This document shows positions 9,391 to 58,249 of a stretch of DNA of 64,000 nucleotides, one piece after another. Made by a program: the position numbers and the translations under genes. Source of the stretch: Emiliania huxleyi CCMP1516. Lineage: Eukaryota. The stretch lies in contig NW_005202428.1 of assembly GCF_000372725.1 (NCBI RefSeq), positions 1,535,331 through 1,599,330 on the forward strand, given 5' to 3'. The notes under the pieces were generated by a model. That model saw only the letters and a program-made list of their open reading frames with translations, did no database searches and was not told where the DNA came from. Each line of letters begins with the position of its first letter. Position 1 is the first letter of the stretch.

Positions 9391-12300
9391 ATGAGCCATC
9401 AGCCAGAGCTGGCCATCGAGGACATCGACGTCGACGACGGGGCGGTGGTCTCCGTCGTCGAGGACATCGACCTCGACGACCCGCCAAGCCTGCCGCCGCA
9501 GCCTCAGCCTCCCGCGCCCGCGCCCGCCGCGCCCGCACCCACCGGCGGCCTGGTCGGCCGCGCTGTTCTTCTGAATGGCCTCGTCGCTCGGGCCGACCTG
9601 AACGGCGCCACGGGCTTTGTCCTCTCCTACGACACTGCACGCGGCCGCTACGTCATTCGCGTCGTGAGCTCGGGAGAGCTCGTCAACGTGCGGCCGTCCA
9701 ACGTGTCCCTGCTGGTCGCGCCCAGCGGTGACCTCACGGAGTACGACCCGCGCAAGGCGCCTCGGCGCGCGCAGACGGCGTGGAACTACTACACCTCCAA
9801 GGCGCGCCGCGTGCTCAAGCGCGAACGCCCGCAGGCGGCCGAGGAGGAGCTGCAGGCTCTGCTCAAGGCTTCGTGGGAGCAGCTGCCCGCCGCCGAGAGG
9901 AGCGTGTACGAGGGCAAGGCGGCGGCGGACCGCGAGAGGCACGCGTCGCAGCTGGCCCTACACGCGTCGCACCGCAGCGCCAGCGACCTCACGTTTGGCG
10001 GCCAGCTGCCGCCGCTGCCCGCCGCCGCGCCGTCGCCGCTGGGCGACCTCACCTTCGGCGGCCAGCTGCCTCCGCTGCCCGCCGCTGCTCCGCCGCTCGC
10101 CGCCGGGGCGGTGCATCTGCAGATGCAGGTCGCGCAGCAGCTGGCCGCCGGGAGGGCGTGCATCTCTCAGCTGCACGGCGCCGGCTTCGCCACCCCCGCA
10201 CTCGCCTCGCTCCCGGGACCCAGCGCCGCCTCCTGCGCCGCCCCGGTGGGCAGCCAGCAGCTTCGAGACCTGATGGGCGGCGCGCCGTGCGGGGGCGGGC
10301 AGCAGCTGAGGGACGTGATGGGCGCGGGCGGCGCCTCCCTGCCGCCGCCGCCCGCCCTCCCGCCCCTGCTCGTCAACGGCTTCGTCGGCGGCGGGTGGGG
10401 AGGCGCCGCCACCGCCGCCGCGCCGCCGACGCTGCCGCCGCCGCCGCCGCTGAGCAAGCAGGAGGCGGCGCAGCTGCGCGCGAGGGAGAGGGAGGCGAGG
10501 GAGATGGCGGCGCGCGCGACCAAGTTGGCGGTGCAGCAGCAGCGGCAGCAGGCCAAGGAGGCGGAGCGGCTGCTGCGCGAGCAGGCAGCACTGGAGGGCG
10601 AGGGAGCGAGCGGAGGAGCAGCGCCGCCCAGTGACGGGAGTGTGGGCTCTGGGAGCTAGGCGAAGGCGGCAGAGCGGCTCGCGCGGGACGAGGCGAAGCG
10701 GCAGCTCAAGGAGGAGGTGCGTCGGGCGCCCCGCGCACTCGACCCTCTCAGCTGACCCCCCCCTCCCCCTCCAAACTCACACCCTGCCTCCAACTCGCAC
10801 CCCTCCCTCCCAACTCAAGCACACGCCGCAGCGCTCGCGTCTCCGCTGCCGCCCACCTCTGCCCCCCCCCCCCCCGCCAAGCCCGCACGAGAGGCCCCTC
10901 CTCCCCAGCCCGTCCCAACGTGCCCCGCATTCGGCCGCACGCTTGCGGCCCTCAGACCCGTCTCGGAGCCGCCCCCCCCCCCTCCCTGCCCCCTCCGGCG
11001 CCAGGCGCGGAGGCTCAAGGAGGCGGAGAGGCGGCTGAGGGAGGAGGCGAAGGCGGAGGAGCGCGACGCGAGGGAGGTGACGCGCTGCCTGCTCGACCTG
11101 CTCCGCGTGGTGGAGGCGGGCGCCGCGCGAGAGGCGCCGCTCTCCCTTCCGCACTGGGCCTCGCACTCTGAATCTCGCACTCTGAATGCCGTGCGGCTCT
11201 GGACGGGGAGTCGCGAGGGACTAGCCTGGCCCCTGCCCCACCACCTCGTGTGAGTGGAGAGGTTTCCCTTGCCTCACCTGACCTCAGGCGCGCCTCGTCG
11301 CGGCGGAGACGGTGCGGCTGCAGGCGAGGGCCGACAAGGCGCGGCGGGCTGCGGAGCGCACGGCGGAGCGCGAGGCGCGCGCCGGCGGCGAGGCGGCGGC
11401 GAGGTGACACGTCCACGACACGTCCACGACACGTCCACGACACGCCCGTAGGCGCGCGACGCCGACGAGGCGCGCCGGCTGGAGGAGGCGCGGCGGCGCC
11501 GGAGGGAGAGGGCACCGCTCGTGTATGCCTCCCTCTCGCTGTGCGGCGGCGGCGGCGGGGGTGCGCGGGTGCGGCTTCGGCTCTCGCGGCCGGCGGCGGC
11601 GGACGCGCTGCCGGAGGGGCCTCTGCCCGTTGGTACGGTGGCGTGGCGGCTCTTCGGGGAGTACGACTTCGCCTCCAAGGACGAGAGGTGTGTGTGTGTG
11701 GTTCTCGAGCCCAGATGCGGAGCACACGAGGAACCCCCCCAGCCCGCACTTGGGGATGCCTCGCTAGGTTCTCGAGCCGCCACCGGTGGGCGCTGATGCT
11801 GCGCGCGGCCGAGGTCCACCTGCAGGCAGAGGTTGGCGACCGCTTCGTCGTGCGCTCGTCGTGCGGCTGCGGCGGCTGGGCGAGGGTGCCTTGGCTGGTG
11901 GTGAGCGACCCGGGCGAGTCGACGCAGCACGGCCTGTACTTGCAGTACCTCTTCGCGGCCGACATGTCTGCCGTCTACCTCTCGCTCGGCCAGGGGACCA
12001 CCCGGCTGCGCACCGCTTTCGGGGGCAAGGCGAGGCCGGAAGAGAGAGGGGGGGGAGGGGGGAGGGAGGGGGAGCGCAGCGCCCGCCAGGGAAGCCGCCG
12101 CCCACGTCTGGGAGTCCCACCCGGACTCTTGGACAAGTCCCGGACATGTCGCGGACATGTCCTCGAAGGTGGCGGCCGAGCACTTGCAGCGCATCGGTGC
12201 GGACGTGCGCGAGCGGTGCCGCGCGCTGCTGCCGCCCGGCGCCGGCTTTGAGCTCGACGAGCCCATCGATTTGTGCGACAAGGTGGCTTCGGCGCAATCT

Positions 12301-29802: not shown

Positions 29803-30961
29803 GATGGGGGGCGTGCACACACGCCGGTGCTGTTGTTGGCTGCTCGAGACCTGCTCTGATTCCCCCAATAAACGAGGCGGCGACGAAACCACTTTTTCTT
29901 TTTTGAGCGAGTCTGCTTTTTTTGATCGGGGGGGGGGGGGGGGGGGGCTGCGCGCATCTTTCCGCCTTACAACCAGTAACCAGCCTCCGGCGGGCCCCCG
30001 CTACCATCCAAATCCGAGTGCCGGTCTACTAATCATAGATAGAGGCCGTCAAGTGTGACATAAGTCCACACACATACGACATACACACACAATGCAACTC
30101 TCACGACACACGGGCACCGGTGGAGCGGCGGCGGCGGCGGCAGCGGCACGCGCGGGCGGACGGATTCGGACGGGGCGGAGCAGCGACCGCCTGGGCGGCC
30201 GCTGCTCTGTCTTGCCAGAGCGCGCCGTCTGTCTGCGCAGCTCGAGCGCGGTCAGGTGCAGGGAAGCGTGGCGGCGCGGGGAAGCGCGGCGGCGGTGCCG
30301 GTGGCGAGCAGGCGAGCGGCCCGCGCGCGGCGAGGCGGACAGGTGATCGGGCAGGCGGGTGATGGGCCGGAGAGTGACCGCGCCCAGCGATCGGAGACGA
30401 GCCGATCGTCGCTCGGCCGCAGCTGACCTCGAAGGCGTGCGGAGCGCGACTGTCGGTGTCGCGGGGCGGCCGTCATGTGGCGAGGAGGGAAGGACGACAA
30501 GTGCGCGTCGTACGGGTCGCTCTTCATCGGCCAGTCGAGCGGCACTCAAGTGAGCTCGAAGGAAGCAAAGCATGCCCGGTTGAGCCAGTCGCTTCGAACG
30601 CCCGTGAAATCTGCTTTGGCGCCAAAGCTTGTGACGAGTTTTGCCACGAAAAAATGGCCCTTGGCCTTGCTAAAAAGGGGGAGCTAACTGGGCGGCCAAA
30701 TTCACACCTCGCGGGACTACTTATGTTTACCCCCCCGCTACGTGTCGCACGAGTGCAACCGGGTAGCGCGGGCGGGGGGCTAAAATTGCCCGGTGTCGGA
30801 CGTGTGCGGGCGCGCGCGGTGCGCCGCCGGTGTGCGGTGACCGGTGGACAGGGGGCGGTGGCGACAAGGCGAGGGCGGAGGGGCGAAGGCGCGGTGGTGG
30901 AACGCTGCAACCGACGCGCTACTAGACTAATCTTGCGTAACAAGGGTCCACGATTTGAGCT

Positions 30962-33900
30962 CTAACTCTCTCGATCGGTCTCGGGACACGACGGCTCTGC
31001 CGGGGCAACCCTCAGCCCCTTGCCTGGTCGCTTGTCGTAGTGAGGCACAGCGTCCGTGACGAGGTCCGACACGACCACGTCCCGAGTGCCGCCGCCGCCG
31101 CCGTCGCACCCCTTTGGCGTGAGTGTGCGCTCGAGCGGGTGAGAGTGGCCGGCGGGGTCGGACCAATGGCCACGGTTCCACCCCTTGTGGAAGAGCCGTG
31201 CACCACTCGCGCGGCCGCCGCGCCGCACCAAATTGGTCGCCGCGAGCACCTTGCCCGCGGCGGCGACCGCCTCCGCTTCCCACCCGCCCGGCAGGCGGAG
31301 CGAAGTGACGGTCGACGGCGCCGCCAGCCGCGGGCGCCAGCACCAATCGCTCGGCCGCGCGCCGTGAGCAATGGCGAGGCCAGCTGTGCAAGTGGAGGAG
31401 TTGCGCTCGTAGGTCACCTTGCGGCAGAAGGGGTGTGTGGGAGGGGCGGGGGGGAGGGGAGGGGGTTCAGCGCGGCCGGATCAGAGGGTGCTGCGGGCTC
31501 TGGCGGCTAGATGTAGATGCAGATGCGGCGCAGCCTCAGTTGGTGGGTGTGTCCGTGCTGGAGGGAGTGTGTGCGCGCGAGGCACCGAGTGGCAGGTGGG
31601 CTCGGCACAGCAACGCCGCTCGCACTCGGCCAGAGACGGCGCCTCTCCGGCCGGCCACACCACGCGCGCGACGCCTACGCCAGTCGGGGCCGCGCTCGAC
31701 GGAGTGTCGCAGGGGGGCGGGAGGGGGTGCTTTGGGCGCCGTAGCCGTAGTACGGCTTGGAGTGCGCTGCGGCCACGTTGTCCACGCCGCGAAGCCGCCG
31801 GAAGCCGCAGCTGCAGCCGGGCATGCCGCGCACACGGGCGGGGCGGCCGGCAGCGCCGCCGCGGGAGCGTCGCACGGCGCACACGTCGTTGGGCTTCGAG
31901 GTCGGCTCGGGCGCGAACTTGTCGCCGACGACGGGCGCCGCGTACCTGAGGACAGCCGGGAGGAGGAGGGGGGGGATGCACGTGCCCTGCAATCCTGGAC
32001 GCGTTGCGGGGAGCGGCCGACATTCCAATCGCGGGCAGTTGCGGGCAGTCTCGCACGATGTTGCTGCGAGCGGGTGGTCGGCGAAGCTTGGGCACGTGGC
32101 CGCGTCGCCGACCAGAGTGAGGAAGGCGGCGAAGGGCCGACGCCGCGGCGGTGCGCCCGTGCGCACCGCCTCGAAGCCGGCGGCGGTGTGGTACCTGTGC
32201 GTCTCGGGGGACTCGGGTCATCTCGGGCCATCTCGGGCGGCGACGAAGCCGGCGGCGGTTGCGGCGGCGCCCCCGCTTGAAGCACGCCTCGCCGCCTCCC
32301 GCTTGGTGGGCGCAGACCTACTCACCGCTGCACCCGTGCGGAGAGGCTGCTCGCACGCGCGCAAGCCCGAGGGCAAGCCCGAGGGCTAGGCTGGCGCAGC
32401 ATCGCCCACCTCGCAGTTGTGGCAGAGGTCTCGCCAGCCCCAATAGCAGCGCAGCAGCGGGCACCACGGGAAGGTGTCGAGTGTCACGTACCTGTGGACA
32501 TGCCTCGGACACGTCGTGGGCGTGTCCTGGGCATGCGCACGGGAGGCCGTCAGCGTCGTGCACTCGGAGGCGGCGCCGAGCTGGAGCGCCATCTTGACGA
32601 AGGTGGAGGCGAAGACGCCCGCCAACAAGTCGGCCTGCGAGCGGACGCGAGGCTGAGAGTCGGCAGCAAGCCGAGGTTCATCAGCCTCGGCTCTCGACCT
32701 CGCTCTCGGCGCAACCTCGGCGCAACCTCGGCGTGATCTCGGCGTGATCTCGGCGTGATCTCGGCGCCCCCTCGCCTGGGAGAGCAGGGCGAGGTCGAGC
32801 AGCTGCAGGTGCAGCATCTCGTCGCCCTCCCTCCGCCGCTCGCTCTTGCGGTGCGACTCCTGCACCGCCCGGCGGTCCTACCGGCCATCTCACAGACACG
32901 TCCTGGACATGTCCTGGACACGTCCCCGACTCCCGCAGTCGGCGCTCCTCGCGCAGAGTGAGCACGTCGAAGCCGTCCGTGGAAGCCGTCATCGCCTCCG
33001 CCGCGACCGAGGGGTCGTCGGTGGCCAGGAAGATGGTGCCTACAGAAGGCAGTCTCGGGTCATCTCGCGTCATCTCGCGTCATCTCGGGTCATCTCGGCT
33101 CATCTCGGCTCATCTCGGCTCATCTCGGCTCATCTCGGCGCAGGAAGAGGGCGCCTACAGAAAGCTCCCACGGCGGCCTTTCGGCTCCCGCGACAGAGTC
33201 GGTCCTCCGCTAGGTAAGGTGGCGCCGCTGGTGACCCCCGCCTCGCGCAAGCGCGTGACGGCGTGCGCAAACGACTTGACGTACTTGCAGCCGCCTCGCT
33301 TCGCGTCGCCGCACCCGTCGCCCAGCCGCACATGCATTCCGACGAGGGGCCGGCGCACCGAGCGCGTCCACGCAGCGACGCCCTCGCCAAAGCTCGCCGC
33401 GAAGGGCGGGCGTGCCTTGCCGTCGGCGGGCGAGGAGGAGGAGGACGAGGAGGAGGGGCCAGGGCTCGCGGCGGGGTGGGCGGCGGGCGGGCGGCGGAGT
33501 AGCAGCGCTTCGAGGGGCGGCGGCGGCGGCGCGCGGCCGGCGTCCTCGGCCGGGGATCGGAGCAACGAGGCGCTCTGCAGCGGCGCGGGCGGAGGACGCG
33601 TCAGCGGGGGGCGTGCGGCGTGTAGGGCTGCAACACCTGCTGAAGTGTTGACTGAGCACAGCGGGATGCGGCGGAGCAGAGCTGGCCGCAGCGGACTGTG
33701 GGCGCCTCGCCTGCAGCGTGCGCGCGAGGCCGGCCGCGAGGCGCGGGCCGGGCGAGAGGAGGTACTGCGTGAGCGCGCGCCAGTACTGGAGCCACGTGAC
33801 GCGCGAGGACCACTCGTCGGGCACCTGGGCGAGTCGTGTTTTTGTGTGTGGGCATGTCCTGAGGTGTTGTTGCCACGGGACGTACGCGCATCGCACGCCT

Positions 33901-34550
33901 CGAGGAACTGAGTGGACTGGTGCGCCTGTGTTCCGCGGCGTGTGGTGTTAGGAGAGGCGGCCTCCGCACCGCCGAGGGGCTGCGTCGGCGGTGCGCCCAG
34001 TGAGGCTGCGTGAAGGCCTTCCGAAAGCGCGACGCCGTCGAGAGAGGACAGGAGGCGACTGTGCACTTGCGGATGGGAGCGCGGCCGCGCTGGTCCTCCT
34101 CGAAGAGCCGCTGACACGCCGACGGCCGCACGAGTTCCTCGAGCGGGTACCTAGAAGGGCTCGATGACGCGTCCAGGGAGGCTCACCTGAGGGTCGTCTC
34201 GCCAAGCGGCGGGTGCACGATGTCGGCATCGTTGCTGGCGGCCAGTCTGTCACCACGAGCGCACGCCGCTGCATCAGCGCCATGTGGAACGACATGGTCA
34301 AAGCTAGCAGCTTGTTGCCAATCCCATTAGGCGAGGTCGGCGCAAAGTACACGGCTGTATCGTGGTAGGAGCACGGCAGCGAGACGTGCCGCTCATCGAG
34401 CCAGGCCTTGAGGTCTGCGTCGAGCGTCCCGTTGCCTACGACAAAGAGACCCGACGGACCGCCGCGGCGGCGGTGCCGGCGGCGCATGTTTCGAAACTTC
34501 GGCGCCGAGCTGAGCAGGTCGCTGCGTGCGCAGGTCGACCGCGGAAAGAA
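30962..34550 (-). CDS. FUT8/NodZ-like (GT23-type) fucosyltransferase with a Cys-rich C-terminal region, multi-exon; start uncertain
   Basis: NGIGNKLLAL (N-terminal GxGN), VGMHVRLGD (motif I), TIFLATDD (motif II), LLDLALLSQADLLAGVFASTF (motif III); C-terminal SLAECERRCCAEPTCHS is PAN/apple-like. Confidence 0.75.
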
Positions 34551-34996
34551 TTTTAGAAGGCCGGGGCCTGATCGTCCTTCCAAGATCCTGCTCGTGCCGG
34601 CGGGGGCCCTGTCCTTCTCCCACCCCTCGTCTGGCGTGTCCGTTTTATTTATTTATTTTGGCACGCAGCTGCGTAATCGTCGGCGCACGTGCGCGGCTCT
34701 TCACGGCCTGTGCCTGCGAGTTGGCAGCCCGGGCGTTCACGCGCTGAATCATCATCGTCATTGCTCTGTCTACACCCTCCCTCAGCCGAGGTCTCGCACA
34801 CACATCGTTTTTTGCGCGCATAGACAGACCGCTGACCGGAGAGGCGTGGGAGATCCTGGCGGGAGTGTTGCGTTTTGGTGTAGGTTTAACAACTCTAGAT
34901 TGAACATAGGGAGCTTTTGAGCGGCAAGGCGCTGGCGGCTAGGCTGGTGGTACTCTCACGCGACTGCATCCACTCAAAGTATTGGTACACAACGCC

Positions 34997-36915
34997 TCAC
35001 AAAGCCACCATGCAGTACACGCCGCCGCCTCCCTCCCTGTCCTTCGACTGCAACAGCATGCCGAGCATCCCGCCCAGCGCCTGCATAGTTGGGCGGGTGG
35101 AATGCTCGCGCACGCACGTCGGTTCCGCCGCCGCGGCCTGCTGCGGCCTCGGGCCGGACAGGAGGTGCAGGTCGCTGATGGAGAGCGGTTCCCCGGCAGC
35201 GACCGAACGGCTGCAGCGCAGGAGAATCCGCGCCGGCCCGTCGTCGACAAAGACCGCCTCGAGGAAGCAGTTTGCTTGCGCACGCTGCAGCCGCACCCAG
35301 CGCGAAGCGTTGCCCTCCGCACGCGCGTCGAGGACGACAGAGGTGACCGCGCCCTCGCGAAGGACGTCGAGTCGCACCTGATCTCGGGAGATCTCGGCTC
35401 ATCTCGGCTGGTCTCGGGTAGCACCTCGCGCCGTCGTGCCGCGCGGCGAGCCTCACCGTACCGTCCCCAAACCAGCACCCTGCCCTGCCCGAGAGCCTGA
35501 CTTGTGTTGAGCTCGCGTCGCCGCCTCCAGGCCCGATGTCCGCGAACCGAACGCGGCCGGCGACCTCGCACACTGCTGCGCCCGCGGCGAGAGGAACGGG
35601 GCTGGCGCAAACAAGGGGAGGCCGCCCCCCGCCCAACGCCTGCGCCGGAGCGGCGGGCAACAGGACGAGGAAACTTGTCGGCATTGCCCGCGGCTCCGTC
35701 GGTGGCAGGTGCGGGAGGAACGCGGAGCGGGTGCCTGCACACACCTCAATCCGTGAAGAGGCGCCGTCCACAGTGCGCACTCACGGGGACAAAGTCGGGG
35801 CTTGCCCGCGACAAGCATGCCGCAAGACCGCCCAAACGAGTCGGCCACAGGCCTGGTCCAGGCGGCTGCAGGCAGGAAAGCAGGGCCTTGCCGCCATAGA
35901 CGCGCGCACGCAAAAAGCGCGGCGGTCGCCAGGACCTCCCGCGCCTCCGCCTCCGCCTCCGCCTCCGCCTCCGCCTCCGCCTCCGCCTCCGCCCCCGCCT
36001 CCGCCTCCGCCCCCGCCTCCATCTCCGCCTCCGCCTCCTCCGCCTCCGCCTCCGCCTCCTCCGCCGCTGCGGGAGCGGGTGGTTGGACAAGGAGCAGCGG
36101 GTAGGGCAGACTGCCGCGGGACAAGTCTGCGCGCGCGAGGAGGTGGAAGAGCCTGCGCCCGCCAGCAGCAGGGAGGGGAGCCCACGACGGGACCGGCCTC
36201 CCCTCCCACCGCGGCAGCAGCACGCGCGCAACGCCGCCACTCCCGGACCCCCCGCGACCTCCCACGGCACCGCCCTCTCCACACCCGCCCATCGCCTCGC
36301 ACACCCCCGGCCAGCGAGACTGCAGCAGCCGCCGCCACCACGCCTCGTCGCACAGCCGCGCGCAGTGGCGGCAGACAAGCGGCATGGCGGCGGCGTCGCC
36401 CCCGGGCCATGTGCTCGCCATGTGGAGGATTCGTTGCAGCAAGTCCTCAGGGAGCGAGAGCAGCGGCGGGGGAGGAAGCTGCTGATCGGCGGCACACGCG
36501 CGCAGCCGCACCATCTGGCCAATCGTGCCAACCCTGAGGCGTGCCTACGGGCGATCTCGGGTGACCTCGCGCGATGCTAGGATGATCCAGCATGATCCAG
36601 GGCGATCCAGGGCGATCTTGATCCCCGAGGAGAGGAGCGATTGGCTGCTTGAACACTGCTAACCACCACTAACCAGCTACCATGGAGGCGCGCCAGCGAT
36701 CCCGCGCTCATCGCCGCGATGTCGCCGCACGCCAAACCGCGCGAGAGCAGCGCCGCCGTCGCCTCCGCACCGAGCGACGCGCCCGCGGCCGCGTCGCACA
36801 CCGCGCTCGCCCAGGCGGGGCGCGTGGCGCCGCCAGACGAGAAGAAAGCCTCCGCCTCGGCCTCCGTCAGCGGTTCTGGCGGAGGGGCGACGTCGTCGGC
36901 GTAGAGCGACAGCCT
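34997..36915 (-). CDS. SAM-like + F-box + degenerate SET-domain coding region, multi-exon
   Basis: F-box LLSLPEDLLQRIL...LVCRHCARLCDEAWWRRLLQSRWP; SET-like LVCASPVPLAAGAAVCEVAGRV and VLDARAEGNASRWVRL...ANC...RILLRCSRSVAAGEPLSIS. Confidence 0.65.
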
Positions 36916-36947
36916 GCACTCACCGCCCAGCCGTGAAGAGGCGCCGT

Positions 36948-38110
36948 TCACAGCTCCCGCGCGACGGCGTCGGTCGGACAGAGGGAGCGCCGGATCTCGA
37001 GGAGTCTGTCCAAGCTCACGAACGCACGTCCAGCCCGGCCGCTGCCGCCCTCTCCGCCGCCACCATCGCTGCCGTCCTCTCCGCCGCCACCATCGCTGCC
37101 GCCCTCTCCGCCGCCACCATCGCTGCCGCCCTCTCCGCCGCCACCATCGCTGCCGTCCTCTCCGCCGCCACCGTCGCTGCCGCCCTCTCCCGTTGAGAGG
37201 CTGCCGCAAGCGGCGTCGGCGGACGGCGTACCGCCCGTGCAGCTGCCCGCCCTTCCTCGCGCCGCGCCTCGGCGGCTGCCAGCGCAGGAAGGCGCTGCTC
37301 CAGGAAGGCCCCTGCGAGGCCCCTCGTGCAGCCGCCGCTCGTGGCGCGCCGCCCGCCCGAACCCGTGCGCGAGCCGAGCGAGGTTTCGGAAGGGGGCGCG
37401 CGTCCGCTCGTCAGGTCCGTCCTCGAGGTGTGGAGAGGCGAGCAGCACCTGAGCGAGTTTGTCGAAACTGATTGTTGAATCCCTCGGGCCCGCCCTCGAG
37501 GGAGAGGCGAGCAGCGCACCAGCCCGTCTCCGAACCTGCCGGCGACGATCGCCGGCGACCCCTCCATCGCCACCGCCGCCGGGCGAGCGCTCGACGCAAA
37601 GGTTGCGAGCACCTGCAGCGCCGCGCCGCCGCCCTCTTGCTCGAGCAGCTGTAAGAGTGGCCCGTTCGCATACCGTGCAATGACGGGCGCCGAAGGCCCG
37701 CCGAGAAGGTCCTGGCCGGCCGCAGTGAAGGCAACGCGGCACGGCGTCGCCTCAGCACCGACGTGGTCGATATCTCGCACAGACACCGGGAGCAGACCCA
37801 ACTCGCACCCGAGGAAGGCGCCGGCGCACACGCCGACGAACCCGCCGCCCGCGCGAGTCCACTCGCGAATCGCGGCGGCGCCTGCATCGCCTAGCCGAGC
37901 GAAGGTGTGCGGCGCAAACCCACCCGGGACCACAAGCACAGTGTGACCCGCGAGCCGGCCCGAGGCTACGTCTTCGCAGGAGAGCGTGGTGAAGGCCATG
38001 CCGGCCTCACCCGCCAGCCGCTCGCGCACGTCTGGCGCGGGGTAGCCGGCCTCGGAGGCCAGCTTGACCGGGTCGGGGAGGTACGCCACATGCTCTCCGC
38101 CGGCCCACAT
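36948..38110 (-). CDS. BPL_N / class I glutamine-amidotransferase-like domain protein (possibly the 5' part of the F-box/SET gene)
   Basis: VLVVPGGF...IREWTRAGGGFVGVCAGAFLG nucleophile elbow; YANGP; PAIVAGRFGDG|VLLASPHLE. Confidence 0.75.
37040..37190 (+). repeat. 30-bp coding minisatellite, about 5 copies
   Basis: Tandem GCTGCCGYCCTCTCCGCCGCCACCATC-like units encoding GSDGGGGE repeats on the minus strand. Confidence 0.85.
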
Positions 38111-38646
38111 TCATTCGCGGCTGGGTTCGGCTACTGAGGGGGCGGGGCGCGCTCACGTGGTCGCCAAGTGAGTGAGTGTCTTTCTCCCGGACCAGTCGAG
38201 ACCAGCCGGAATTGCCGTACGCGGGAGCGCTTCGCGCCCATAGGCAGGGGCTCGACAGCCCTCTAGGGGTGCCGGCGCCCTGCTGGGCGCCCCCCGCTAC
38301 CTGGTCAACGCCGCATCGAATGGCGGCGAGCGATCCGGGTACTCTTAACGGCGTTCATAGAAGCGGAGACCCTCGAGGTCGCCGCAGCCAACGGCCGCAG
38401 GTCTGTGCTTGACTGGCTGAGTGGCTGTGGGCAGCGCAACGCATAGTACACAAGTGGCAGGTGGCAGGTGGTCCTTCGAACGGGACTGGCGAGCGCTGGC
38501 ACCAGTGCTAAAAAGAAATACTGGTTACTCGAGGGCACCTTCGGCGAGTGGCTCGACGAGCAACCGTTCGAGGTGGAGCCTGCGGCTACCGCCCGGCTGC
38601 TCAAGCACTACACGGCGGAGAACCGAGGGACGCGAGCGGTTGCGAG

Positions 38647-41600
38647 ATGGCCCCCAAGCGCCAGCGCACTGCCAGTCCTGGTCAATCGCCGCACGCGGAG
38701 CACGCGCCGCCGCCGTCGGATGACGACGACGACAGCACGCAGGCTTTTGCAAACCTCGTCGACGATCCGATGAGCAGCTCGCAGATGAGCGTCACCGACA
38801 ACCCGACGCCGCGGCCGCACGACACGGTGAAAAGGAACCGCAGCAGCAGCAACGCGAACGCCGCGCTCGACGGCGGCGGCGGCAGCGGCGGCGGTCCATC
38901 CGAGGCGGTGCCCCTTGCCAAGGACAAGAGTATCCATGACCGCGTGCACGGCACGGTGGCGCTGCCGCCGCTGCTCGTCGCGGTGATGGACACGCCCCAC
39001 TTCCAGCGGCTCGATCAGATCCAGCAGCTCGGCGGCTGCCACTTTGTCTACCCGTCGGCAAAGCACTCCCGCAAGGCGCCCGCGGCTAGAGAGTGTTCTC
39101 CCTCGCCGCCGCCTCGGCCCAGAGCACTTCTCCGCCGGCTGCCTCTGCCGCGCCGCCCTCTCCTGCCGCGCCCTCGCCCGTCTCCAGCCGTGCCCTCTCC
39201 TCCACCCGCCCGCCCCCCGCAGGAGCACTCGATCGGCGTCGCCCACCTCGCGGGAACGCTTCTCAAGCACCTGCGCGTCCAGCAGCCCGAGCTGCAGATT
39301 TTGGAGGACGACGTGTTTTGGGGGCAGCTCGCCGGCCTTGTGCCCGACCTGGGGCACGGGCCCTTTTTGCACATGTAAGAGACCTTTTTCAAATGGCAGG
39401 GCGGGCTGAGAGGAGACCCCCCCCCCGACGATTCCGAGCGCACCCAAAAGGAACCGAACGGTCCCGAAAGTAGGCGGGCAGGAGGAACTCCCCCCCCCAA
39501 AACTCCCCCTGGGCAAAAAACCCGAGGGGGCGGCTGCCCCCGCGGCGCGGCTGCAACCCTGGGAGCCCGAGGAAATGTCGGTGGCCCTTTGACCCTTTGG
39601 GGTTTTGGCCCCCCCCCCCCCCCCTCTCCCTCCCCCCCTCCCTCCCTCCCCTTCCCCCTCTCCCAGCGGCCGGCATGGGGAAGGCCCCGCCCCTCACCAG
39701 AGGCGACGCTTGCGGGGAAGGTGCTTCTCTTCGACGACTTGCTCGACTCGAACCGGATCGAGCTCTCCGCCTACTGCAGCAGCGCCGCCTGCCCCGCCGA
39801 GCAGCGCCGCTTCGTCAAGGCGCTGCACCCCCACGGGGCTCGAGCCGGGCCCGTGTCTCGGCTACGCCTCGGCCATCTCGCGAGCCTCGGTCGGTCTAGG
39901 CGCTGGTCAAGGGGCTCAAGCCGGCCGAGGAGTGGCCGCAGGACATCGGCCGCGACAAGAGCAAGCGCTTCCTCTTCGACATCGTGTCAAACTCGCGCAA
40001 CGGCGAGATCAACCGAGATTGGCCGAGATTGGCCGAGATCAGCCGAGATCGAGCGAGATCGGGCGAGATCGGGCGAGATGACGCGAGAACAGCCGCGACA
40101 CGTCGTGAGCAAACTCGCGCAGCGGCGCCGTGTGGCAGCTCGGCGCTTCCGGCGCTCCCCGTTGGCACGCGAGACTAGCGGTGCACTCCCTCGCCGCCAG
40201 GCGTCGACGTCGACAAACTCGACTACCTTCTGCGCGATGCGATGGCGTGCCACGGCGCCTCGCGCCCCTTCGAGCTCTCTCGCCTCTTCGAGTCGACTCG
40301 CGTCATCACGCCGCACCCGGGTCCTAGATGCGGGAGCTACAGGCCCGTGCATTCCGAGTGGCACTCGAGAGGGCACGCATTGGCATCAGCTGGCATTCTC
40401 AGCCGCATTCCACCGCATGCGTAGCCCGTTGTAGCCCGTGTGTGCACGCCCGCAGCTTGGGCGTATTGGTGACCTTTGGGCGTATTGGTGACATAGGCAC
40501 TCGGATCGCATCCGCGGCGCGCGGTGGACACAGGATGGGCGTCTCGAGGGTGGCAGGCACACGCTCACGCACACCACGCACACCACGCGCGCGCACACCG
40601 GGAGGCTCCTCCTGTCTTTTGGACGTGGAGAGGGGTAGTCTGGCCTTGGCCCCATTAGCCTCGGGAGGAGTGTCCCCCCCCCCCCCCCCCTCCCCCTCCC
40701 TCCTAGGCGGGACCGGCCCGCTCGCGCGTCGGCCGACGCGGTGCAGGCGCAGGCGCAGGCGCAGATCTGCTTCCAGCTCAAGGCTGCAGCCAGCCTGGTC
40801 GAGACGTACTGACAGGTGGGACTCGACTCGAGGGTGAGGTCGTGTGAGTCAGGTGGCCACAGATTTGGTCGAGATCTACACGTTGCGCGCCAAGCTGCAC
40901 AAGAAGCTCTACCAGCACCACACCGCCAACGTCGCAGAGCTCATGATCACCGACGTGCGCTCGAGCTCGCCGCGAGCCGAGATCACCCGAGATCACCCGA
41001 GATCGCCCGAGATCGCCCGAGATCACCCGGCTCGGCGCACGCCAGCCGCTCGGGAAGGCGCGTCTCCTGATGCGCGCTTGGGCGTGAGCAGGTGCTCAAA
41101 CTCGCCAACGACCACTTCTCCTTCCGCGGCAGCGACAACGCCGCCACCACGCTCGCGCAGGCCGCCCTCGACCCGAAGGCGTTCGCGCGGCTCACCGACG
41201 CCATCCTCGACTCAATCTACGTCTCGCTTGAAGAGGGGCTCGACGAGGCGCAGGGGCTGATCGAGCGGATGAAGAAACGCGACTATTACCGCCAGATCGG
41301 CCGCTCGACGCAGATCTCGCCGCTGCCGCAGTGCTACTACTGCGGCGAGCTGACGGAGATCCGCAGCAAGTTCTGCGGCGCGTGCGGCAAAAAGTGCAAG
41401 GGTCGCCTTCACGTCAGCGAGAGGCCCGACGAGCCTCACGGCCCAAACAACCCGGCGGTGCCTCCTGCGGCTCGGCGCGAGGCGTGCCCGCATCGCAGGC
41501 GCCCTCACGCCCGCCCGCGCGCACAGGTGGCGCAGCTGATCGGCAAGCGGCCGCCCGACTTCGAGCAAGACATCCTAACGTTCGTCGACGAGGCGTGGCG

Positions 41601-50778: not shown

Positions 50779-52070
50779 AGGAGTATGTACGCGGCGGGTC
50801 AGTCCTGGGGCCGAATTTGCCACGTCAAGTTTCGCCGAGGTTTTCTTTATAGTGTATGTAGCTCTGACTACATTCCCGTAGGAGGACTCTGCTGACAGGG
50901 TTTGCGATGAGGAGCGACCCGAAGGGTTTCTCGGAGGTTAGTGCACCACTAACCGCCGAAGCGCAAGAACTCTACGACGGATCGGGCTTATACTATACAT
51001 GTACTAGCATTTACCGAGTCAGTGGCCGTCCTCAGCTTCCGTGTTACTGTCACTGTCAGTGCCAAAATTCTTGTTGGCTTCTAAAAATTGGATCGCTCCT
51101 CATCGCAAACCCCGTCAGCAGTCCTCCTTCGGGAATGTACGTAAGAGCTACATACACTGAAAAATCTCCCTCTCCCTCTGTCGTGTGCGGCGCGACTGTC
51201 TGCTACTCGCATACGTGTATATGTAGCCCACTCTTTTTTTGTCAGAGTAGGAAGGCTGTGTCGAGTGCCAAACGAAAGAAAGAATTCTAGATATAAAGCC
51301 CCTCTCCAGCACTGGCACGAACTAGCACCACAAAAGACACAGAAAAAATCCAAGAGAGGGGTTGGAGGGCGGGAGAATCCAAAAAAGCCGTCCAAAAAGC
51401 CACAAAAAGCCAGCGAGCCTCACGTTACGCGATTGCTCGCGAAGCGCAGCATGATGCGTGGCCAGCTTGGGAGGCTGCCGCCGCTGTCAGAGGCGGCCGC
51501 CACTGTGAGGTCTCGAGGGCCGACCGGCCGGGCGAGCATCCGCGCTGCCGACGACGTGCTCGAGGCTGACCTTCAGAGCGACGAGATTCTCGCATGCTTT
51601 GAGGAGGCGCTCGGCGAACGGCAGCCAGAGATGGGAACGGATGCTGCAGCAGGGCGAGAGGCGAACGCCGAGAGTGCGGAGGCCGCACCGCGACTCGAGG
51701 CTGCAGCAGAGCAGCAGCGGGAACATTCCCTGCTTGCACCGACCGCGGGGCGCGGCGTTGAGCCGGTGCTGCAGACCCGGTGCCTATGCTGCATACGAAT
51801 TCCGGTGGAGGGCGCAGATCGTGCGAGCCAGATGCCGGCGCCCGTCAGCAGATCGGGTCGGCAGCTGCGAGCATTCTCGAGTGGCGCGGCGAGGCGGCGC
51901 GAGCGAAGGTGCTAGATAAGGTGCGTGATGCGGGGCGAGCAGATGGGGACCCGGCCGCCCCAGAGGAGGAAAATGGCGAGTAAAAAACACATCGTGTCCT
52001 CAGCCGCTTCCTCTATGGCCGCTTCCGCTATGGACTGCCCAAACCAAATCTCTCTCTTTATGCGATCCAG

Positions 52071-52516
52071 ACCCGGCCGCGGCCGCGGGACTGGCCGCCG
52101 CCACCGAGACGGCCGTCATCGCGCTGGGGTGATTCTGGCATCCGCAGGCCGAGTACGACTCGCTTCCCGGCGTCGTCTCCACCTCGGTCGGCTATACGGG
52201 TGGTGCGTCCTCGAACCCCACGTACTCCACCGTCTGCCGCGGGGACGGGCACACAGAGGCTCTCAAGGTGGAGTACGACCCGACCAAGACTTCATACGAG
52301 GCGCTGATGACACGCTTCTTCGCCGAGGCGTCGGCCCACAAGAGCAAGCCGCAGTACATGAGCGCCGTGTGGGCGCAGAATGCGGAGCAAAGGGCGACCG
52401 CCGAGAGAATTGCGAGGCAGAGCGGCAAGCCCATCCCCGTGCTCGACGCAAAGCAGTGGCACGACGCTGAGGAGTATCATCAGCACTACATCGACAAGCA
52501 GTATGGAAGGAGGTGA
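52071..52516 (+). CDS. msrA: Peptide methionine sulfoxide reductase A, selenocysteine form (last exon; upstream exons probably from about 51450-51980)
   Basis: TAVIALG-TGA(52130-52132)-FWHPQAEYDSLPGVVSTSVGYTGG...NPTY...GHTEALKVEYDP...SYEAL...QYMSAVW...AEEYHQHY. The TGA falls exactly on the catalytic Cys of GCFW. Confidence 0.9.
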
Positions 52517-52564
52517 GGCTGCCACCGACACCCTCCGCTCCCGACACACTTTGGTATCAACTCG

Positions 52565-52668
52565 CCGCGGAATGACGCTGGCAAGGCCGCAACAGCAAGA
52601 TGAGGGCCGCACACCGAGACCTGGATCGTGCGTGTGCGCCCCCGCTGTGGCCGGGCTGCTGAAGAGCT
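52565..52668 (+). promoter_or_regulatory. Candidate SECIS element for msrA (form 2, long apical extension)
   Basis: ATGA (52572-52575) ... TGA (52660-52662); imperfect helix GCTGGCAAGGCCG / TGGCCGGGCTGC; unpaired AA, then CAGC/GCTG and an apical CGCACAC/GTGTGCG stem. Folded by eye only. Confidence 0.5.
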
Positions 52669-52837
52669 TATAGGAGCGGTGTTGAACGTGTGTCGGTGGA
52701 GCCGGGGCGTGGACCGTGGAGGCTGAGACCTTTCAGTCAGATGGGTGTGGAGAGAACTGTGTGTGATGCCTGATTCAAATAGGACGACACTGCTGGCAAC
52801 ACCGCGCTCACCTTCCTCTTGGCACCCACAGAGAGAT

Positions 52838-52917
52838 CCCTCTGCGCGTTGGTCTCAGCCGCGACCTCTGGGCGTGTCGGCGCCCGTTGGCAGTCGTGGC
52901 GTCATCTCGCGCGAGGG
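52838..52917 (-). promoter_or_regulatory. SECIS element (form 2) for the SelU/PRXL2-like gene
   Basis: Minus strand: CCCTCGCGCG AG ATGA C GCCACGACT GCC AA C GGGCG CCGACA CGCCC AGA GGTCGCGGC T GA GACCAA CGCGC A GAGGG. This gives helix I, the UGA/GA quartet, helix II, AA and an apical helix, about 50-130 nt after the stop. Confidence 0.85.
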
Positions 52918-52964
52918 CTCTGGAGCTACATGTACATGTACACGCCTCAGGCAGCGGTGGCCTG

Positions 52965-53609
52965 TTATCTCGCCGCCGCCTCGAGCAAGTCGTCCAGCTT
53001 TGCGTGCGCGCCAGTGCTGGGGTCGAAGTGCGAGAACAGCAGGTCGGGGCCTTCAAAGACGAACGCGCCGCCCTGCTGCAGGCCCTGGTCATTCTTGGGC
53101 GGCAGCCACGGCTTCCAGCGCTTGGTAGCGTCGATCAGGTCGGCGGCGCCGTCCTTGCGCGCGCGATCGAGAATCGCGAAGGGCGTGTCAACAGTGAAGA
53201 AGGTCGTGGCAACTCCCTTCTTCAGGCCGAGAGCGTCGTACGCGGCGTTCTCTGGATCGCAGAGGAGGGTTTCCGCAGGGAGGCCGACGTGCTCGCAGTA
53301 CTCTCGGCCTCGCTCGGCCGTCCCGATGCCGACCGCCACGAGCTTGGCAGGCGGCTTGCCGCCGCGGAGCACAGGCAGCACATCACGTGCAAGCTGTGCG
53401 CCCAGCTCCTGGCAGAACATTCAACCAAACGATCGCATCAGCACCAGCACCGCACGCTCGTCCGTGGCCCACTGCTCGGTGAGCGGGACCGCCACGCCGT
53501 CGGTGGCCCGCAGCACGTCGATGCCGCGCAGAAGGTTGAACGCGTTGGGCGGCGCGGTGGCGGACGGCACGGTGAACGAGGCGGCGGCGGCCGCGAATAG
53601 CGAGAGCAT
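52965..53609 (-). CDS. AhpC/TSA-like (PRXL2 / selenoprotein U family) thioredoxin-fold selenoprotein, probably plastid-targeted
   Basis: MLSLFAAAAASFTVP...EQWATDERAVLVLMRSFG-TGA(53421-53423)-MFCQEL...LVAVGIG...DPENAAYDALGL...QQGGAFVF...H: a UxxC motif. The two track ORFs are contiguous and in frame. Confidence 0.9.
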
Positions 53610-53696
53610 GTACACGCGTATGCCGTTCCTGTGAAACTCCCTCCAAGCTTCTACGAGTAAGAAATTTCCCCGCCTGGCACAACACAGAAGGAACTC

Positions 53697-54150
53697 TTTG
53701 AGGGAGCAGTTCGAGGCGGCGATGGCGGCGGGCGAGCTGCTCGAGATGCTCGAGAGCTTGCCGCGAGGGGCGGTCGAGGCCTCCGTGCGACTGATGCGCG
53801 GTTACACCCACCCGCACGGGCGAGTGGCCAGAGCCCATTCTCACTCACTCACTACAGTTGTAGCCCTGCCCCGCAGCGCGGCCGCTCGCCAAGCCCCGCA
53901 GATGAGTGGTCAGATGGTTAGTGCCAGAGAGCGAGGGGTCCGGGGGGGAGCACAAATAGGACGCCCAGCCCTGCCCTGGTGCCGCCGAGCGAGTGCATAT
54001 CCTATGCGAGAGAGGATCCCCTGTGCCCTGTGCCCAGCCCTCTCCGCGCGGCGATGCGCCCACCCCCCTCGCTTTTGCAAAATCCTGCAAAGGTGGGGAC
54101 GTGTCTGTCCTCGACCCAGCCCTAGCTTGCGATGTCCGTTTTGTTTATTT
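53697..54150 (+). mobile_element. 5'-truncated copy of the retroelement at 17677-18830
   Basis: Encodes REQFEAAMAAGELLEMLESLPRGAVEASVR and shares the 3' UTR through CCCTAGCTTG.GATGTCCGTT plus a T/A tail. ACTCTTT on both flanks (53693-53699, 54157-54163) is a weak TSD candidate. Confidence 0.8.
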
Positions 54151-54323
54151 AAAACGACTCTTTCTTTACTTTCCGAGGTAACGAACTCCGCCGTCAACGG
54201 CCGTCATCGCATTCGCCTCCTGGGTCTTGTGCTGACTTCTGACTGTCGTTGCTGTTTCTCGACTGTCTGTGCTTGTGCGCCTAGCGTCCTGTTTTGTGTG
54301 TTTGTGTCAACGTGTTCCGCCCC

Positions 54324-57000
54324 ATGGCATGGGACTGCGTGGCCGGCTGGCATCCCCGCGGCTTGCACCTCGACTTTGCGCTCGGCACCGAGGCGATCAA
54401 CAACCTCGGCGGGTATCCAGGAGGCAGCGGCGTCCTCTGCCAGCCGCCAGCGCTTGGGTCGGCGACCGACTGCTCGTGCGGGTGCGGGTGCGGCTGCTCG
54501 GACTCCGCGGAAGGCACGCTTCCGGTGCTGCGGTACAACGGTGTCGGCAGGGTGTATGACGGCGTCAGCACGGTGGCGGCGGGCCTGGACCTCGTCGTGA
54601 GCAACCTCACTTCCTACACTCCCTGGTCTTCAGCGCACAATGGCAGGACGATGAATGGCGGGAACTTCGCCTCTATCAGCCTCCTGCAGGGCACGCAGAC
54701 CACCTTTGGGTTCGAGTTCGTCCAGCCGGGCACCAACGCGCCCTTCGTCGTAGACCACCCCTTCGACTTTTGCTTCTTTGACTTTGACACCGGCCCGCAC
54801 CTCGGGGAGCTCGCAAACATGAGGGAGAGCATGGTCGCGTGCGGCACATCGGGCTACTTCATGCATGGTAAGCTTCCCGAGGCATCTTCAATCAAGGACT
54901 TCCTCTGCCCAGACATTGACACCTCGCCCTACATGCGAATCGAGGAGGATGCGGGCTGCATCCGCGTCGAAGCGCTGGCCGAGGGGCGTGGGCCCGACAA
55001 TCCGAGCGACTTTCCGGAGGCGCTAATGAATATTCCGGGGGGCGCCAGCGGGACGTGCGGCGACTACGACAAGTGTCCCGGGTTGGCGCACGGCCGAATG
55101 CCCGGCGACGGAATCTCGGGCTACCCGCGGCCCCCTGGCAGAGTCTTGGACGAGGTCATTTGCACCGACGAAGGCGCCGAGATCCCAGGCGCCGGCGTCT
55201 ACCCCGATGGCTCGAGGAAGTCGGGGCAGCCCTACCGCTACACGATGCCCAAATTTGTGTGCCTCCAATACCCTGCTGGAATCAGCAGCTTCGAGGTGAC
55301 ATATGAGGTTGGCCGAAACTTTGACGCGTCTGCGTACGGCCGGAACTTTCTCTTTGCAGGCACGGGGAGTCTGCCGCCCGAGTGTGTAGGGCCGCCCCAG
55401 TTGCCGCCCGCAATGCCGCCGTCACGGCCAGCACCAATGCCTTCTCCCAGCTCGCCACCGTCTACGCCGCTGCCTCAGCGACCGCACTTGCTACCACATA
55501 CTCCCCCACCGCTGATGCCGCCGCCGTCAACACCGCCGCCGCCGCCGCCGCTGCCACTGCCGCCGCCACCATCGCCATCGCCCCCGCCGCCCCCGCCACT
55601 GACGCCCCCGCAGACGCCAGCGCAGGCGCCGCCACCACCGCCAGTGCCACTACCGCCGCCAGTGCCACCGCCGCCGCCCTCGCCACCCCCGTCATCACCT
55701 CCACCGACACCCTCCTTGCCACCTTCCGAGCCGATGCCCTCGCCGCCGCCGCCGCCACCCCCTCTGGACGAGAAGGTGAGGCTTGTTCTTCCCTTCACGT
55801 TCCATCCTATGCAGGCAGCCCTTAGCGAGGGCTCTTTTTCGGTAGAATTTGAGGCTGCGGTGCGCCGTTTGCTGCCGCTCACTCGCCACGGCGTTGAAGT
55901 CTCCGTTGTGCAAACGGAGCAAGCAAGTGCCTCGTCTGTCGAGGTGCAGTTCAGCGCAGAGGGGGAAGATCTGAACGAATCCCAGAGAGCGTACCCGATT
56001 CGAGTGAGAGGCCTCTTGGCCAGGGACCTGCCACGCGTGCTCAACGCCGCCAGCGTCTACCCCTTGCAAGTCTGGGCAGACGTCGCTGTCTCCTCGGTCG
56101 TCACAGTCAAAACTGTGCACGCGTCGGCCGAGGAGGCCAGGACGGTGGCAAGGTTTTGGACGCGGGGCTCTGCGGCGGCGGGAGAGGCCGAGCTCGATCT
56201 TCTCTCCCGAGGCGGCTCTGTCTCCGAGATTCAACCTTGGGTTGGTCCTCCTCCGCTCATCGTCAGCTTTGACTTTTATGCCGCGACACATTCGGGCGAG
56301 CCTCACGAGAGCGCACTTGCCCTCGCGTGTCTTCTTGCCGAGCATGGCCAGACGCCTCTGCTGGAGACACAGGTGCGAGAGTTATGCCTCGCCTTCCTCA
56401 AGCACACGCCACCGACGTCGCCTGCCCTATGCTGGATGTCCCTGCGGCAGCGCTCACGCTCCCCCCTCCGCTTCGTGGCAGGCGGGCTACGTGCAGCCTG
56501 GCACGGCCCTACTGATGGTTGCGGGCGAGCGTGTCGAGGTTGTCTCATGCCCCCGCTCAACCTCGGGCCGCAGCAGCTCGACGATAGTGGCCATCGCTGC
56601 CGGCGGTGCCGTCGCCTTTCTCCTTTTCACGGCGCTCTGCTGCGCGGAGTTGGTCGCACGGGGCTTCTTCGGAGCGCGGGCTCAGCTGCACTGCACGCAC
56701 TCGAACAAGCGTTTGCTTCCGCTCTACCTTCCACGCGCGCAACGAGAGGCCATCCGAGGCCGCCTATACTCTGCCGACTCGCGCCCCCCTTCGCCCCGCT
56801 GTGGCTCAAAGGGTGACACGCAGCAGCAGCCGGCGGCTGGGGCCGCACTGCCGCCGTCTGGCGACCTGACATCGTCGGAGGCTTCCGCCGAGCCCAGTGC
56901 GGAGCTCCCGGTGTCGCCGTCGATCAATTTTCGCTTCGGTGCGATTGGCGTGCTGCAAATGAGAAAGGACTTGAGCCCGAGACAAGTACCGAGACGGTGA
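54324..57000 (+). CDS. Predicted cell-surface protein: NNLGG...GRNFLFAG beta-rich domain, Pro-rich stalk, C-terminal TM helix
   Basis: LDFALGTEAINNLGG, LRYNGVG, LDLVVSN, FFDFDTG, DNPSD, GRNFLFAG; long Pro-rich tract at about 55390-55760; TM IVAIAAGGAVAFLLFTALCCA in ORF 56242-57000, joined by inferred introns. Confidence 0.65.
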
Positions 57001-57457
57001 GAGCTGAGTCCTGAGAGGGGAGAGCGGTGCCTTGGGGGGCACACGTGGTCATCGTATTCGTAGAGAGAGAATGTAGGCAGATACTATAAGTGCATAGAGT
57101 AGTAGTATAATAGTATGCACATGGGTAAAGTGGGTTGAGGCGGGCTTGTACTGTAGGGTGGTCAGTAGTTTTGTGCCACCTTCTTGCCTCTTCGCAAGCG
57201 TTTGTTTTATTGACGAGCAAGTGACACTCTCGGACCCCTGGCGCCTGGGTTCCGGCTGTTTTTTTGGGGTGGGTAGAGTACACCCCCCGGATTGTAGGGG
57301 GGTAGGGGGTTGGGGGGTGGCCGCCCACAAGAGACGTCCGTTACATGCCCAAATGAGGGGTAGCAGACCGCGATCCGGCGCACCCTACCCTACCCCCGAA
57401 CAGCCGGAACCCTGCTCACATTTCACGATGCAAAGAGGAATTCCAGCACGTTGATAT

Positions 57458-58249
57458 ATGGCCGACACCGGCACCGGCAGCAGCGGAGACAGTGGCAGCA
57501 GTACGAAGACCCGGCCGATCGTATTCCTGGACGTGGATGGCGTGCTCTGCTGCAAACACGAGACAAGGCTGGAGGCCGCGCCGTGTGCAGAGCTGCAAAG
57601 AATCGCCGAGTCCACACGTGCCGCAGTTGTGCTGTCCACCGACTGGCGGCGTGACACGTCACTCAGTAGCCGCATCAAACGATGTCTGCACGAGAGAAGA
57701 GTCGACTGCATTGGCGCGACACCGCAGCTCAGCGGCTCCATGGACCGCGTTTCGCGCGTCCGCCCGAAGGAGATCCTCAGCTGGCTGTCGGAGCACGGAT
57801 TGGGAGGCCTTCATGGCAGCACGAATTGGGTGGCGATCGACGACCGTGACCTGGTATCAGAAGACGGCGGCGAGGCACTGCGGGGCCGCTTCGTCCAGAC
57901 AGCCTTTGCGAGTGGGTTGACCCGCGAGCTGGCAGACCGAGCTATCAAAATGCTTCTGCACGGCCCACAGCCCTGCCCGGAGGAGGAGAGGCCACCCAAC
58001 GTGCGAACGTTGCAGGATCTGCTCGCCGAGGCCGGCGTGGACACGGCGGTGATGGATGTGTTGCAGAGCTGCGCCACAACCAGCTCGCTACCAGCGCTGG
58101 TGAAGGCTGTTGAGAGCTCAGGGCGTGTGAAATTCCTTGAGCTACTCAAGGCAAGCGGGATATCACGCCCTGCGACGCGCCAGGCCATTGCGAATGCGAT
58201 CGGCAGGTGCAAACGAGAGGATCGACTGTGCCCTGAACTAAAAATATGA
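57458..58249 (+). CDS. HAD-superfamily (HAD_SAK_2, Swiss-Army-Knife-type) domain protein with a C-terminal helical SAM-like module
   Basis: IVFLDVDGVL, VVLSTDWR, IGATP, RPKEILSWL, WVAIDD, FVQT...GLT; C-terminal RVKFLELLKASGISRPATRQAIANAI. Confidence 0.85.
   Translation: MADTGTGSSGDSGSSTKTRPIVFLDVDGVLCCKHETRLEAAPCAELQRIAESTRAAVVLSTDWRRDTSLSSRIKRCLHERRVDCIGATPQLSGSMDRVSRVRPKEILSWLSEHGLGGLHGSTNWVAIDDRDLVSEDGGEALRGRFVQTAFASGLTRELADRAIKMLLHGPQPCPEEERPPNVRTLQDLLAEAGVDTAVMDVLQSCATTSSLPALVKAVESSGRVKFLELLKASGISRPATRQAIANAIGRCKREDRLCPELKI

Follow-up and report, generated by a model that had tools for sequence, protein, structure and literature searches.

Convergent Sec-type MsrA and SelU-like genes in Emiliania huxleyi, with a likely dead MsrA allele in the sequenced strain

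In the DNA analysed here, a stretch of 64,000 nucleotides from Emiliania huxleyi CCMP1516 (the window), two redox genes lie tail to tail, an MsrA gene on the plus strand and a SelU/PRXL2-like gene on the minus strand. An earlier note on this DNA had described their convergent orientation and a 448-bp interval between the stops, and both were confirmed, the interval (448 nt) running from 52517 to 52964; a TGA was likewise found at the catalytic position of each gene, as the note had stated (52130-52132, G-U-FW; 53423-53421, RSFG-U-MFC). The named members of the corresponding protein clusters are EOD41816.1 (MsrA) and EOD41817.1 (SelU-like), two neighbouring entries of E. huxleyi CCMP1516. The locus was compared with a metagenome contig, L001, which is 99% identical to the window and holds both genes, and with contigs from seven of the ten sequencing runs in which its sequence occurs (X1, X2, X3, X7, X8, X9 and X10); that these runs are RNA is only a guess, and the contigs are assembled, with rare transcript forms dropped and with neither ends nor strands shown. 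The features of the locus are as follows.

51349 to 51981, no strand assigned: insertion of about 633 nt, absent from L001, lying between six-A runs at 51343-51348 and 51982-51987
52015 to 52516, plus strand: Sec-MsrA gene, single exon, frameshifted here (the ATGs at 52015, 52030 and 52060 are out of frame with the MsrA domain)
52046 to 52058, plus strand: site at which alleles differ; 8 nt present in L001, X3, X7, X9 and X10 are missing from the window, which breaks the frame just past the conserved CPN
52130 to 52132, plus strand: in-frame TGA in the MsrA catalytic Cys column (G-U-FW), aligned with GCFW of E. coli; predicted Sec
52572 to 52618, plus strand: weak SECIS candidate for MsrA (RTGA-AA-GA), the sole plus-strand candidate, 55 nt from the stop
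52604 to 52642, plus strand: predicted competing hairpin, which captures the 3' arm of the SECIS candidate and lacks the 3' GA of the SECIS core
52763 to 52767, no strand assigned: meeting zone of two X7 contigs, the MsrA-side one (52026-52767) and the SelU-side one (52763-53522); possible overlap of 3' ends
52854 to 52905, minus strand: SECIS of the SelU-like gene, canonical type II (AUGAC, AA 12 nt on, mini-stem, UGAG), 59 nt from the stop
52965 to 53609, minus strand: SelU/PRXL2-like gene, single exon, 214 aa, U-M-F-C (UxxC)
53421 to 53423, minus strand: in-frame TGA at the first position of UxxC, reading LMRSFG-TGA-MFCQE; predicted Sec

With the TGA read through, the MsrA product matched Pfam PMSR (PF01625) at 115 bits (cut-off 23.7; E 4e-33), and the alignment showed that the conserved residues Y, E, Y, H and Y are retained. 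Foldseek paired its model with E. coli MsrA (E 1e-13), and the protein of the intact allele described below was modelled as a standard MsrA with a pLDDT of 88. The codon phase of the domain is fixed from 52070 (TETAVIALG-TGA-FWHP) to the stop at 52514-52516; the start at 52071 given in the earlier note lies off this reading frame. The SelU-like product, treated in the same way, matched Pfam AhpC-TSA_2 at 64 bits (cut-off 27; E 2e-17). It was modelled with a thioredoxin-like fold (pLDDT 78.5) in which [CU]xxC is present, and the nearest folds in a structure search were human prostamide/PGF synthase (E 2e-8), which we take to be PRXL2B, and also peroxiredoxin Q. One of its matches carries the name 'seleno U' (E 1e-29); a sequence search of the SelU-like alignment against PDB gave 0 matches. 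The N-terminus of this protein (53609-53560, minus strand) consists of an Ala-rich leader followed by Phe, with an Ala run whose length differs between alleles, an arrangement that presumably resembles the bipartite plastid signals of chromist algae.

No redox gene beyond the pair came out of a Pfam search of the 104 frames of at least 210 aa in the window, which shorter or TGA-split genes would escape. An MrcB_N domain (11172-12248, plus strand, E 1.5e-20) and a HAD_SAK_2 domain (57455-58246, plus strand, E 6e-29) were seen in other frames, and other neighbouring genes in the window include ankyrin, HMG, Myb, cofilin and aminotransferase genes. High-copy repeats lie on both sides of the pair (50850-51400 and 53820-54300), where the summed contig depth reached hundreds to thousands; contig cover was absent at 54426-54727 in four of four runs and at 53671-53821 in three of four.

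Conservation of the MsrA TGA was assessed by a metagenome scan with two peptide patterns placed off the catalytic column, which matched at least 591 stretches and yielded at least 416 relatives, the best 80 of which were kept. Among these best 80 of at least 416 loci the catalytic column held TGA in 74, had no cover in 4 and was aligned with an unrelated codon in 2, and the 74 TGA-bearing loci collapse to 54 distinct core sequences. Of the MsrA protein matches (120 listed of 284 found), 91 do not reach the catalytic column, and the other 29 carry Cys (28) or Leu (1). Alignment of homologues, which the earlier note had proposed as a check, thus gave TGA in 74/80 best loci and Cys in 28/29 covering proteins for MsrA. 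For the SelU-like family, MFCQ, the residues right after the TGA, are the first residues of 51 of 105 homologues (these are protein calls, in which the codons themselves are unread), and SelU-like fragments from the same species stop at RSFG. Two patterns gave 0 matches in viral_contigs.

The earlier note had also raised the possibility that the TGAs are spliced out or are base-call errors. No splice joint was found at either TGA across the contigs of the seven runs, and the codon was unaltered in X1, X2, X7, X8 and X10 for MsrA and in X1 and X7 for SelU; not all difference rows were visible for X3 and X9, so the state of the TGA is given for the other runs only. Given the unchanged TGA in runs and relatives and the missing joints, we reject both possibilities. 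A GTGAG at the MsrA stop was considered as a splice donor and rejected, as no joint was present in the contigs.

Both public gene models (EOD41816.1 and EOD41817.1) skip the TGA by means of introns while their exons match the window; the SelU model drops 12 residues including UxxC, and the first exon of the MsrA model (51786-51920) falls inside the insertion. The contigs show neither of the annotated introns, which we therefore reject. The expectation that standard gene calling would mangle both genes was thus borne out, in that the public models step over the TGAs and most of the listed MsrA homologues, as well as 51 of 105 SelU-like ones, are called without the Sec column, and two models lacking their own active sites can now be corrected. 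Judged from sequence, the in-frame active-site TGA of both genes is likely to be decoded as selenocysteine.

The MsrA allele of the window differs from that of L001 at its 5' end. In L001 the ATG equivalent to 52015 is in frame and begins a reading frame of 169 codons that crosses the TGA and ends at the stop, whereas in the window the ATGs at 52015, 52030 and 52060 all read another frame and there is no in-frame ATG upstream of the TGA; ribosomes starting at these three ATGs would yield an unrelated frame of 136-151 residues. The longer form was found in L001 and in X3, X7, X9 and X10, which come from four studies. X1 and X2, which come from one study and may derive from the window's own source, are identical to the window in every letter at the 8-nt site, and X8 has no cover there. 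Because X1 and X2 match letter for letter, the short form was taken to be a genuine allele, not an error of assembly. The longer form is likely to be ancestral, since it keeps in frame a CPN(G) motif that lies 20-46 residues before Sec in 21 of the 54 distinct Sec-MsrA sequences (from the best 80 of at least 416 loci); the E. huxleyi CPN site is at L001:573-581, corresponding to window 52030-52045. The window copy of MsrA is frameshifted and likely dead. The earlier claim that both genes are true selenoproteins holds at the level of the species, but probably fails for the MsrA allele of the window. In this bloom alga of global importance a selenoenzyme gene thus segregates with both an intact and a broken allele, so that work confined to the reference sequence would misjudge MsrA.

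Upstream of the gene, L001 parallels the window over 50994-51344 and picks it up again at 51984, and the intervening insertion ends about 33 nt before the MsrA ATG. Contigs of six of the seven runs leave the window at 51982 and go on in other sequence. The insertion appears to be a fragment copied from a longer sequence, of which several diverged copies occur elsewhere in the genome.

The insertion bears on whether the window allele, too, could make a selenoprotein, with MsrA translated either from a CTG at 52091 or after removal of a new 91-nt intron (51980-52070). The catalytic domain is the same in both alleles, the CTG is in frame and 13 codons ahead of the TGA, and the proposed intron, bounded by GT (51980) and AG (52069-70), would preserve the frame, draw its start codon and donor from the insertion and contain a changed segment that is pyrimidine-rich. 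Against this, the sequence is left unspliced in the contigs of X1 (52030-52070) and X2 (52007-52070), with no joint found, the CTG is preceded by three out-of-frame ATGs, and the CPN cysteine would be lost. We consider such a rescue unlikely and retain the reading that the window copy is dead. The X8 contig starts exactly at 52072, with no X8 cover of 51998-52065, and may represent a third 5' form.

In the eukaryotic pathway a SECIS recruits SBP2 and eEFSec to recode UGA (PMC7539508, in excerpt). By this standard scheme the core of a SECIS in the 3' UTR would be bound by SBP2, while eEFSec would bring Sec-tRNA to the UGA of each gene. The interval between the stops was examined with a custom scan (RTGA, AA 10-15 nt later, GA and a closing helix). 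The earlier note had placed a SECIS-shaped hairpin on each strand, and the one on the minus strand proved solid: its upper part has a folding energy of -20.4 kcal/mol and belongs to the minimum free energy fold of its 254-nt context, its z-score is -2.86 (2/200 shuffles), and 0/1000 shuffles of the interval gave one as good. The one on the plus strand is doubtful. It has three bulges and only -6.5 kcal/mol, it was equalled in 74/1000 shuffles (at least 10 pairs) or 159/1000 (at least 8 pairs), and forcing it in context costs 15-18 kcal/mol relative to the hairpin at 52604-52642, compared with 0-2.6 in relatives; it is outcompeted in both alleles. A hairpin at 52600 was rejected as a SECIS since it has no 3' GA. 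A short TACATG tandem in the SelU 3' UTR (52921-52944) carries an extra unit in the window and X1 compared with L001, X3, X7 and X9.

Matches found in relatives (33, from a scan that favours stable hairpins and with near-duplicates included) ranged from -8 to -31 kcal/mol, all stronger than the MsrA candidate. They lie 22 to 142 nt from the stop in 30 of the 33, with an AA offset of 14 in 3 of the 33, and the plus candidate fits them in core and distance. A looser rescan of 18 relative loci left several without a convincing element or without AA; 3' of MsrA in L006, L011, L014 and L061 there are SECIS-like hairpins in which core and helix are good and only the apical AA is missing. Rfam (E up to 10, 51500-54200) found no SECIS family and, because even the clear minus-strand element was missed, is insensitive here. 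A covariance model built from 23 relative SECIS, which aligned poorly, ranked the minus-strand element 18th of 22 window matches (E 9.3), missed the plus candidate and is uninformative here.

Since the MsrA candidate is weaker than all 33 relative matches, the intact allele may escape recoding as well. Taken to its end, this would mean that MsrA is decaying throughout the species, its SECIS no longer working and the intact-frame allele also stopping at the UGA. Such decay would fit the tolerated frameshift and insertion and a candidate that is outcompeted in both alleles and that, with 14-nt flanks, reaches -11.9 kcal/mol, where the excerpted text of PMC2375036 gives a threshold of -12.6 kcal/mol that is narrowly missed. 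It is harder to reconcile with an MsrA coding sequence in which the window and L001 show no difference between 52070 and the stop, with a candidate whose core, order and distance (+55) are right when 30/33 relatives lie at +22 to +142, and with the several relatives that likewise have no strict match or no AA. We doubt that the decay is species-wide and prefer the reading of an intact allele beside a broken one. On that reading the intact MsrA would reduce methionine-S-sulfoxide through its Sec, with low efficiency if the weak element at 52572 is its only SECIS.

The CPN(G) motif hints at how the intact enzyme may be recycled. MsrA recycling proceeds through a resolving Cys, or through glutaredoxin in 1-Cys forms (PMC4479559, in part). 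As this MsrA has no C-terminal Cys, the N-terminal CPN cysteine becomes a candidate resolving residue, by which the intact-allele protein may be recycled. Several Sec-MsrAs without CPN(G) have a Cys near the C-terminus, as expected if either serves as resolving cysteine. The AlphaFold model of the intact protein has a pLDDT of 51-55 over residues 1-20 and is for this reason silent on the position of the CPN cysteine. A search of the literature at the level of titles found no paper on a resolving cysteine of Sec-MsrA at the N-terminus or in a CPNG motif. From these alignments we tentatively propose, as a possible and not yet probable reading, that this cysteine is the resolving residue of an algal Sec-MsrA clade, and the motif offers a testable recycling mechanism for algal Sec-MsrA.

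Turning to the pairing of the genes, tblastn with six SelU-like queries against the best 80 of at least 416 MsrA loci gave a match in L001 only and none in 79 of the 80. The base of the synteny test was 36 loci in 17 groups with at least 1100 nt downstream, and among these a SelU neighbour beside MsrA was found in 0 of the 16 groups other than L001. The pairing was thus not kept in other lineages with enough flank, as the synteny check of the earlier note turned out, in a set from which close relatives are absent; the test is partial because the best non-L001 locus is only 64% identical. If the gene total of E. huxleyi is taken to be 30,000-39,000, 96 selenoprotein genes would by chance form 0.23-0.30 adjacent pairs, of which roughly one in four would be convergent. 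That number of selenoprotein genes is the one reported for the species (PMC7539508, in excerpt). The same excerpt describes selenoprotein gene clusters in 13 algae, chiefly in E. huxleyi, and names MSRA and SELENOU as the families that most often take part. The earlier view of such clustering as unusual overlooks these published algal clusters, and the clustering itself adds little beyond published work.

In X1, X3 and X9 both genes lie on a single contig, and the X7 contigs meet between the two SECIS sites. This suggests that the 3' ends touch or overlap there, in contigs that cannot show ends or strands; a title-level literature search found no paper matching convergent or antisense selenoprotein genes. 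It could be argued from the spanning and meeting contigs, from the retention of the pair in L001 and from the high frequency of MSRA and SELENOU in the clusters excerpted from PMC7539508 that the pairing is selected, with overlapping 3' UTRs or shared chromatin coupling both selenoproteins under selenium or oxidative stress. Weighing against selection are the absence of SelU beside MsrA in the 16 other groups, a chance adjacency that is not rare at 96 genes, a meeting zone that covers neither SECIS, and the tolerance of a null allele in one partner, and we give this explanation little credence; selection for the pairing within the order may yet apply, the best locus compared beyond L001 being 64% identical. 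Least probable is that the MsrA SECIS is a switch, held folded away by the hairpin at 52604-52642 until the SelU-like transcript, extended antisense at its 3' end, pairs with the distal arm of that hairpin and frees it; the mRNA of one selenoprotein would then permit Sec insertion in the other. A SECIS that is weak and outcompeted, and 3' ends that touch, are compatible with this, but the X7 contig stops some 120 nt before the hairpin, and the SECIS was still not the best fold once the distal arm had been removed.

Taken as one joint claim, we think it probable that these are unrelated redox genes whose active-site TGAs both likely encode Sec, that the SelU-like gene is likely functional and the window MsrA likely dead, and that their adjacency is likely a lineage-specific accident. 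The pair is real, but its Sec-type genes belong to known families, its cluster is of a kind already described, and it has probably been catalogued before; what is new is that the MsrA allele is broken, that the SECIS of MsrA is doubtful and that there is a CPN(G) motif.

Sec-MsrA and Sec-SelU are both known in algae, the former in Ostreococcus, Thalassiosira and Chlamydomonas (PMC2375036, in part). Like these Sec-MsrAs and that of Clostridium oremlandii (excerpt of PMC4479559), the E. huxleyi protein combines a PMSR domain, G-U-FW and the MsrA fold; unlike them, it is short and has no Cys after the domain. The intact E. huxleyi allele has three Cys in its N-terminal extension, including that of CPN, whereas the Clostridium enzyme CoMsrA has no Cys and uses glutaredoxin (PMC4479559, same excerpt). 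In the alignment with E. coli MsrA, nothing corresponds to the Asp of the E. coli DHGTQY stretch. As in the algal clusters of Jiang et al. 2020 (PMC7539508), adjacent genes here come from different selenoprotein families; orientation, UTR overlap and allele polymorphism are not discussed in the excerpted cluster account. The sole cluster reported there as common to several species is SELENOF-PDI_a of Mamiellales, and, unlike it, the MsrA/SelU-like pairing was not found in other groups (0/16, close relatives not included). SELENOU corresponds to PRXL2A/B/C (PMC13134290, in excerpt), and the SelU-like protein resembles this family in its AhpC-TSA_2 domain, its UxxC and its best fold, human prostamide/PGF synthase, from which it differs in sharing just 19% identity and in bearing the Ala-rich N-terminal leader. 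By this likeness it would be a thioredoxin-fold UxxC thiol oxidoreductase, perhaps located in the plastid, whose UxxC may alternate between selenolate and selenenyl-sulfide and whose substrate would most likely be a peroxide or a disulfide.
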